The translations under genes were made by a program, and so were the position numbers. A DNA stretch of 64,000 nucleotides, from the NCBI RefSeq assembly GCF_017114985.1, contig NZ_JABXKP010000038.1:12357-76356 (forward strand), written 5' to 3'. The notes under the pieces were generated by a model, which did no database searches, was not told where the DNA came from, and was given only the letters and a program-made list of their open reading frames with translations. Positions 60,860-61,159 of the stretch are shown here, piece by piece. Position 1 is the first letter of the stretch, and each line of letters starts with the position of its first letter. The DNA comes from Nostoc sp. JL33 (GTDB lineage: Bacteria > Cyanobacteriota > Cyanobacteriia > Cyanobacteriales > Nostocaceae).

Positions 60860-61159
60860 TTACACGAAGGGGTTAGCAAACAGCAATACCAGGGCAATTA
60901 CTAGACCATAAATGGTCAGGGATTCCATGAAAGCCAAGGTTAATAGCAGAGTACCGCGAATTTTTCCTTCTGCTTCTGGTTGACGAGCAATACCTTCTAC
61001 TGCTTGTCCAGCAGCATTACCTTGACCAATACCAGGGCCAATTGCAGCTAAACCAATTGCTAGAGCAGCAGCCAGAACTGAAGCAGCAGAAACTAATGGA
61101 TCAATACCAGCGCCTGACGCAGCAGCTAGAACGTAAGAAGCAGAAATTAATGGGCCCAT
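60860..61159 (-). CDS. atpE: ATP synthase c subunit (cyanobacterial atpH), 99 aa with an 18-aa N-terminal extension
   Basis: [22 protein letters not shown]; RBS AAGGAAAA before ATG 61159. Confidence 0.95.

Follow-up and report, generated by a model that had tools for sequence, protein, structure and literature searches.

A partial tandem duplication in atpH gives the ATP synthase c subunit of Nostoc sp. JL33 a hydrophobic N-terminal extension that may be a leader peptide

Few membrane proteins of photosynthetic organisms are as conserved, or as well studied, as the c subunit of the F-type ATP synthase, which normally begins with a formyl-Met lying only a few residues from the membrane. The gene for it (atpH) in the cyanobacterium Nostoc sp. 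JL33 encodes a product of 99 aa rather than the usual 81, and raises the question of where the additional N-terminal residues come from, whether they are translated, and what becomes of them. The gene lies in a stretch of 64,000 nucleotides of contig NZ_JABXKP010000038.1 (positions 12,357 to 76,356, assembly GCF_017114985.1), referred to here as the window, and reads on the minus strand from an ATG at 61159–61157 to a stop at 60862–60860. Apart from its length the product is an ordinary c subunit of the cyanobacterial and chloroplast type, for which NCBIfam NF005608 and Pfam PF00137 serve as the family reference. It scores 160.7 bits in a profile search with NF005608 (cut-off 128), and the match spans only residues 19–98, corresponding to profile positions 1–80 of 81, with the extension lying outside it. 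The helical hairpin is present, the R59-Q60-P61-E62 loop and the ion-binding E79 (in the FMESL segment of helix 2) are invariant, and the Pfam labels of the neighbouring genes give the usual operon order, atp1-a-c-b'-b-delta-alpha. Residues 19–99 are 89–99% identical to normal Nostocales c subunits, and neither the GxGxGxG region of helix 1 nor the remainder of the protein differs from that of normal alleles. A standard subunit is about 81 aa long and begins M-D/N-P at helix 1, whereas the window protein reaches D-P-L-V only at residue 20, after an Ile and not a Met. An earlier inspection of the DNA letters alone (the sequence-only reading) had taken the cyanobacterial length to be about 81 aa, which agrees both with the profile match and with the 78–82 aa of the solved chains. 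The window gene is the single c-subunit match in the source genome. A second, divergent c-subunit gene (42–49% identity) is present in several relatives (G023, G017, G016, G027, G028 and others), presumably as part of an alternate (N-type-like) ATPase operon; unlike these, the source genome has no second gene that we could find.

The extension is a copy of the sequence that follows it. Codons 1–18 and 19–36 form adjoining 54-nt units in a single frame, identical at 39 of 54 bases. Over all the 54-mers that the window contains on its two strands, copy 1 averages 13.4 matches (sd 3.3), and the best match other than the tandem neighbour has 31 of 54; the neighbour stands about 7.8 sd above the mean, and the repeat is therefore far beyond chance. 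Tandem Repeats Finder does not report a two-copy repeat in atpH, because there are only two copies and these have diverged. We thus confirm that the prefix is an old, in-frame, diverged partial tandem duplication of the 5' end of the c gene in which the ancestral ATG has been lost. The sequence-only reading had proposed just such a duplicated and diverged N-terminus, with the DNA copies 54 bp apart, the frame retained and the ancestral start now an ATT, and it was right on each of these points, 54 being the period of the repeat.

Several observations bear on where translation begins. The Shine-Dalgarno region AAGGTAAGGA ends 8 nt from the upstream ATG, and the same initiation region is found before the ATG GAT CCA of normal 81-aa relatives. 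Both the upstream ATG and its ribosome-binding site are kept in every copy of the extension, whereas the downstream codon at the junction is variable: it is ATT in the window, GTT in the G023-type Nostoc alleles, in G252 and in two metagenome loci (L080 and L081), and ATC in three species. No Shine-Dalgarno sequence precedes the junction codon, and in the window gene none of the codons ATG, GTG and TTG occurs in frame from there to Met78. With the downstream ATG decayed to ATT, ATC or GTT and the Shine-Dalgarno sequence unchanged, translation must start at the upstream ATG. These comparisons show that a predicted precursor of 97–99 aa, and of the only c subunit, is made from the upstream ATG, and that the junction codon, judged from the alleles available, behaves as an ordinary Ile or Val codon and not as a start. 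The alternative, in which a normal 81-aa protein is produced directly, either by translation from the junction codon or because the extension is an assembly error, is very improbable. ATT can initiate weakly in some bacterial genes, which is the one point in favour of a junction start; however, other alleles and species have GTT or ATC at this position, the canonical Shine-Dalgarno sequence stands before the upstream ATG and none at the junction, and the frame, the ATG and the peptide are all conserved. Initiation at ATT to give a normal protein, named in the sequence-only reading as an outcome that would overturn it, is implausible for the same reasons. Assembly error is contradicted by the identical 99-aa product being called in three independent assemblies, one an ENA/NCBI contig and the other two Logan assemblies of different runs.

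Gene callers differ at this locus (window 60860–61252, minus strand), with JGI calling products of 128–130 aa (P0002–P0009) from a TTG or other upstream start and ENA/NCBI calling 97–99 aa. The upstream TTG start, which gives a 130-aa open reading frame (ORF) in the JGI call, was rejected on account of an in-frame TAA between the TTG and the ATG in three species, located three codons upstream of the ATG. The question is relevant to annotation more generally, as callers give 81-, 97–99- and 128–130-aa products for the atpH locus.

The extension is not private to the source genome. It is present in 8 of 127 Nostoc species genomes, the others encoding the normal MDPLV... protein, and in 11 of 389 species genomes of the Nostocaceae, distributed over 3 of 68 genera. 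Exact look-up identifies named carriers, including Calothrix sp. PCC 7507 (AFY31004.1, 97 aa) and Nostoc linckia NIES-25 / Nostoc sp. DSM 114161 (BAY77666.1, 97 aa), and metagenomes yield further variants. We found no paper in the literature searched that describes such a c-subunit extension in cyanobacteria, although 97-aa proteins do stand annotated in GenBank. Two other outcomes that the sequence-only reading had listed as fatal to it are disposed of by these data: an assembly artefact is excluded by the three independent assemblies and the 11 species, and the extension is rare rather than common and already described. It is instead a shared, old haplotype that moves among species.

Ten distinct extension peptides were recovered, three of 18 residues, two of 17 and five of 16 (four are listed in Table 1). 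All are in frame, lack any charged residue, and retain the ATG, the Shine-Dalgarno sequence and a Tyr. All ten depart from the parental SAASV in two places, where Ala has become Ser and Ser has become Tyr. The Tyr and an SAS(S)Y motif are invariant across the variants. Elsewhere the replacements are uniformly conservative (G/A/V/I, P/S, L/V, I/V, L/F and A/V), and at least three independent insertions or deletions (an extra Ser codon, an extra Gly codon, and 16- versus 18-codon tails) have each kept the frame. The shared changes from SAASV, together with a single type of upstream spacer and an extra codon in the gene for subunit a (see below), point to a single origin for the variants.

A tree-based count over nine distinct alleles gives 16 synonymous and 15 non-synonymous changes in extension codons 2–14, with an omega of 0.38, which departs from neutrality (binomial p = 0.007). 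In pairwise comparison the extension has a pN/pS of 0.30, as against 0.033 for the core of 80 codons. The deepest alleles differ at synonymous sites by a pS of 0.3–0.5, from which it follows that the allele is old. The pattern of substitution shows the extension to be under purifying selection to stay uncharged and moderately hydrophobic and to end in small residues.

The extension travels as part of a haplotype of about 190 bp that comprises a codon at the end of the subunit a gene, the a–c spacer, and the extension itself. The boundaries are clear when the source genome (G000) is compared with G008, which has a normal allele: the flanks are 97–98% identical, but between the tail of the a gene and the junction codon the two are wholly different. 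In this block, subunit a ends in ...EEHEE(S/A)H at 21 of 21 extension loci and at none of 58 normal loci, most of which end in ...EEHEEH, and the additional Ser or Ala codon probably hitch-hikes in the block. The stop codon after the longer tail is TAG, but TAA in one locus. Normal Nostoc alleles carry an unrelated spacer (N type), although both this and the spacer of the extension haplotype (E type) are found with normal atpH genes in other Nostocaceae genera. In G185, for example, a normal atpH follows an E-type spacer nearly identical to that of the extension haplotype, and spacers of this kind indicate that the duplication arose on an E-type background.

The distribution of the haplotype does not follow that of the species. 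Five state changes are needed to place the extension on a tree of the flanking a and b' genes, and six to eight on a tree of the unlinked rpoB gene, where monophyly of the carriers is rejected (delta lnL 890, p-AU 2e-74). This scatter over the species tree is accounted for by allele exchange through recombination, and the sequence patterns point to homologous recombination between lineages as its likely route. We also considered repeated precise deletion of one copy as the cause of the patchiness, and rejected it. Unequal crossing-over would be expected to leave chimeras beginning MG(P/S)L..., whereas, at every locus read, normal alleles begin ATG GAT CC- (M-D-P) and have a different spacer type from that of the extension haplotype, so re-deletion cannot explain the pattern. 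No residue of subunit a (checked over the 241 aa before the tail) or of Atp1 tracks the extension, and subunit a is identical over these 241 residues in G000 and G008. The association tests for subunit a were anchored internally, as alignment from the end gave spurious 'perfect' columns arising from the one-codon indel in the tail.

Coordinates of the features at the locus are collected in Table 1. We note that the a–c spacer exists across the Nostocaceae as two unrelated and old sequence types (loci L007, L063, L127 and others). The E type reads TCAGTTGATGTAATGTTAGATTTTGGAT...AAAATCTAAAATCG... and is recognisable also in another genus of the order and in an Oscillatoria, and the N type reads ...GCGCTCAAAACATCGCAAAGCGCGAT...GTGCAGCGTGAAAAACACG.... 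A search of the E-type spacer against Rfam returned only a sub-threshold match to SAR11_0636 (27 bits versus 67). The E-type spacer may serve to process or stabilise the mRNA and so boost expression of the c subunit.

Table 1. Features of the atpH locus, given as window positions, and four of the extension peptides
Feature	Position	Strand	Remarks
atpH (F-type ATP synthase subunit c) ORF, 99 codons and stop	60860..61159	minus	Translation and NF005608 match
Copy 2, original helix-1 N-terminus	61052..61105	minus	Aligns with the N-terminus of normal relatives
Junction codon ATT (Ile19), former ATG start	61103..61105	minus	ATT, ATC or GTT among species; proposed +1 of a signal-peptidase site, ...GAG/IDP
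Copy 1, 18-codon N-terminal extension, beginning at the ATG in use	61106..61159	minus	Homologous 16–18-codon extensions in 10 other species genomes
a–c spacer, E type, 121 nt	61160..61280	minus	Always linked to the extension in Nostoc
Shine-Dalgarno region AAGGTAAGGA	61168..61177	minus	Core AAGGA; same region precedes the normal ATG in relatives
Predicted hairpin in E-type spacer	~61202-61261	minus	Fold z = -1.88, weak
atpI/atpB (subunit a), upstream neighbour	61281..62045	minus	No extension-linked residue in the 241 aa before the tail
Extra codon TCA (Ser) before the last His of subunit a (...EEHEESH, stop)	61287..61289	minus	Same haplotype block
Extension peptide MVPVISASYILAAAAG			16 residues
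Extension peptide MVSVISASYIFAAVAG			16 residues
Extension peptide MIPLVSASYVFAAVSG			16 residues
Extension peptide MVPLISASSYVLAAATG			17 residues

What, then, is the fate of the extension in the protein? The comparisons above show that in an ancestor of Nostoc and two sister genera the first 16–18 codons of atpH were duplicated in tandem and in frame on the E-type background, after which the downstream ATG decayed to ATT, ATC or GTT. The likeliest reading of the outcome, with chances about even, is a signal-peptide-like leader that arose from one half of helix 1 and is removed at the junction. On this proposal the prefix would enter the membrane N-in and form a helical hairpin with helix 1, in the manner of the YidC-inserted M13 procoat, and this orientation would leave the mature N-terminus on the lumenal side, which is its proper side. 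Type I signal peptidase would then cut at ...(A/V/G/S)-x-(G/T)/(I/V)-D-P (the slash before I/V marking the cut) on the lumenal or periplasmic face. The product would be an ordinary 81-residue c subunit with Ile or Val as its first residue and a free amine in place of the formyl-Met, and nothing would change in the c-ring, in its stoichiometry or in how it contacts subunit a. For Calothrix sp. PCC 7507 or Nostoc linckia NIES-25, the calculated mass is about 9560 or 9550 Da at full length (28 Da more with a formyl group) and would be about 8042 or 8056 Da after a cut at the junction.

The ten variants have much of what this proposal calls for. The best 11-residue stretch of each has a mean Kyte-Doolittle hydropathy of 1.64–2.06, consistent with a hydrophobic h-region of about 7–15 residues. 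All ten obey the –3/–1 rule at the junction, with A, V, G or S at –3, G (nine variants) or T (one) at –1, and I or V but no Pro at +1. The ancestral L-A-I-G at the tail of the extension has been replaced by small, helix-breaking residues (SGAG, ATG, AAG, VSG or GT). An AlphaFold2 monomer has a helix at residues 2–16 and a break at 17–20 before helix 1, with a mean pLDDT of 66 and values of only about 51–53 over the extension, too weak for topology to be read from it. Cleavage at the junction to give an ordinary 81-residue subunit fits the occurrence of near-identical strains that have either allele together with an identical subunit a, and the lack of any subunit a or Atp1 residue that tracks the extension. 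The sequence-only reading had suggested cleavage after LAAA, but this fits less well than the junction, two of the variants having FAAV and thus Val at –1.

There are, however, several points that weigh against a cleaved leader. None of the ten variants has a positively charged n-region, which is atypical for Sec signal peptides, and 16–18 residues is at the short end of the range for those of bacteria. The invariant Tyr and SAS(S)Y motif suggest a specific contact that a disposable leader would not need. The –3/–1 pattern was already present in the parental A-I-G/M and is thus in part inherited, so it is not evidence of selection for cleavage. What a leader would add is also not obvious, as normal c subunits insert via YidC without one.

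Some of these points lend weight to a different possibility, which we regard as rather unlikely, that the extension is kept in the mature c subunit, where it could form a hydrophobic lumenal collar or plug or partially fill the pore in place of lipid, and might affect assembly, stability or stoichiometry of the ring. A plug in the ring lumen and altered assembly or stoichiometry were among the possibilities raised by the sequence-only reading. The invariant motif and an omega of 0.38 at pS values of up to 0.5 imply more sequence specificity than is seen in most leaders, the basic n-region is absent, and the AlphaFold2 model has a separate helix (at low confidence). The geometry of c14 and c15 rings is the chief difficulty, for the ring has no room inside for 14–15 extra helices, and on the outside subunit a would be in their way. 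Retention is also hard to reconcile with near-identical strains swapping alleles while subunit a is unchanged over 241 residues and no Atp1 residue responds, or with a GxGxGxG region and remaining protein that are those of normal alleles. In its fullest form, a Nostoc/Calothrix rotor with an extra hydrophobic helix on the lumenal side of each protomer, such that protein, as a plug or collar, takes the place of the pore lipids and the two rotor forms persist as an exchangeable polymorphism across species, the idea seems slightly less probable still; we know of no F-ATP synthase structure whose rotor has such a plug or collar.

It is also conceivable, although distinctly improbable, that the extension is a translated and tolerated passenger with no role of its own, a near-neutral duplication that persists through linkage and drift, whatever its fate once it has been made. 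Its minority status (in 8 of 127 Nostoc species and 11 of 389 genomes of the family), a constraint about ten times weaker than that on the core, and its interchangeability with the normal allele are all in keeping with this. An omega significantly below 1 (p = 0.007) is not, and neither are the preservation of frame through at least three independent indels and the lack of a single charged or strongly polar residue in ten variants despite their high synonymous divergence. Moreover, with about 14 copies in each complex a harmful prefix would be purged, yet the extension persists in three genera.

Whichever of these applies, the locus offers a natural allele that adds to the c subunit a hydrophobic prefix taken from its own helix, is long-lived (synonymous divergence to about 0.5), and is swapped between species beside the normal allele. 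If the prefix is cleaved, this would be a datable birth of a signal peptide from a duplicated transmembrane segment, and the two alleles would provide a natural test of how the c subunit enters the thylakoid and plasma membranes, by YidC only or assisted by a leader. If it is retained, it would constitute a new rotor architecture.

Other repeats are present in the window and in related sequences. The spacer between atpD (delta) and atpA contains a 39-bp tandem repeat (58674–58800; 3.3 copies, 96% matches), the unit of which includes the palindrome AGACGCGATTAATCGCGTCT, and a spurious 47-aa ORF (ELGAETRLIASVQ three times) runs through it. A 26-bp tandem repeat of 2.6 copies lies in the b'–b spacer (59962–60030). 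Among other c-subunit sequences, the 120-aa protein P0020, which bears the label Sphagnum compactum, carries an incomplete N-terminal stretch of plastid AtpH fused ahead of a full copy, and resembles either a separate duplication of part of the 5' end or a nuclear insert of plastid DNA. P0010 and P0016 have internal duplications, on contigs of only 1.1–1.2 kb, and may be assembly artefacts.

The closest known relatives of the window protein are the canonical AtpH subunits of 81–82 aa, including those of the Spirulina c15 ring (PDB 2WIE), the spinach c14 ring (4MJN and 6FKF) and pea (3V3C), with which it shares a close core, the loop, the ion-binding Glu, the GxGxGxG region and the operon position. 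It differs from them in the prefix derived from helix 1, 16–18 residues long in the carriers, and in the change of Met1 to Ile or Val. The solved chloroplast and cyanobacterial c chains (78–82 aa) align only from residue 20–22 of the window protein onwards, those of spinach and Spirulina over the whole core, and the extension lies beyond every solved structure and family profile in the comparisons. Subunits of about 100 aa with additional N-terminal residues do exist, in NCBIfam families PRK08482 (105 aa), PRK07159 (101 aa) and PRK13464 (101 aa), and the hairpin of the window protein aligns to these longer profiles from positions of about 12–33 on; however, it falls far below the cut-offs of the longer families (69 bits versus 135, and 56 versus 122).

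Duplication within a c-subunit gene likewise has precedents in c1 of Acetobacterium woodii (PDB 4BEM chain J) and in the V/A-type proteolipids. In these, whole hairpins are duplicated and the number of ion sites per ring is changed, whereas the window gene repeats only codons 1–18, half of helix 1, and the added segment falls short of the complete two-helix hairpin of a duplicated-hairpin proteolipid.

Two systems are informative in regard to a leader. The M13 procoat has a basic n-region and an acidic loop of about 20 residues, whereas the turn in the extended c subunit would consist of only about four small residues. The resemblance is in the mode of entry: procoat is a small two-helix hairpin, leader plus transmembrane (TM) segment, that passes through YidC, as is proposed here for the extended subunit. 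Subunit c is itself a YidC-only substrate, and procoat is cut once YidC has inserted its leader-plus-TM hairpin (PMC9360617). For comparison with another c subunit, we turn to Aquifex aeolicus, a member of another phylum. Its c subunit is reportedly made as a longer precursor with a cleavable N-terminal signal peptide, a hydrophobic leader that is removed after insertion into the membrane, which is the course proposed here for Nostoc. The two leader sequences are presumably unrelated. The Nostoc prefix is demonstrably copied from helix 1 of the protein itself, has no basic n-region and varies within the genus, and its cleavage is predicted. What we infer to be new in Nostoc is thus a putative leader-bearing c subunit in which the leader can be traced to the protein's own helix and is polymorphic across species.
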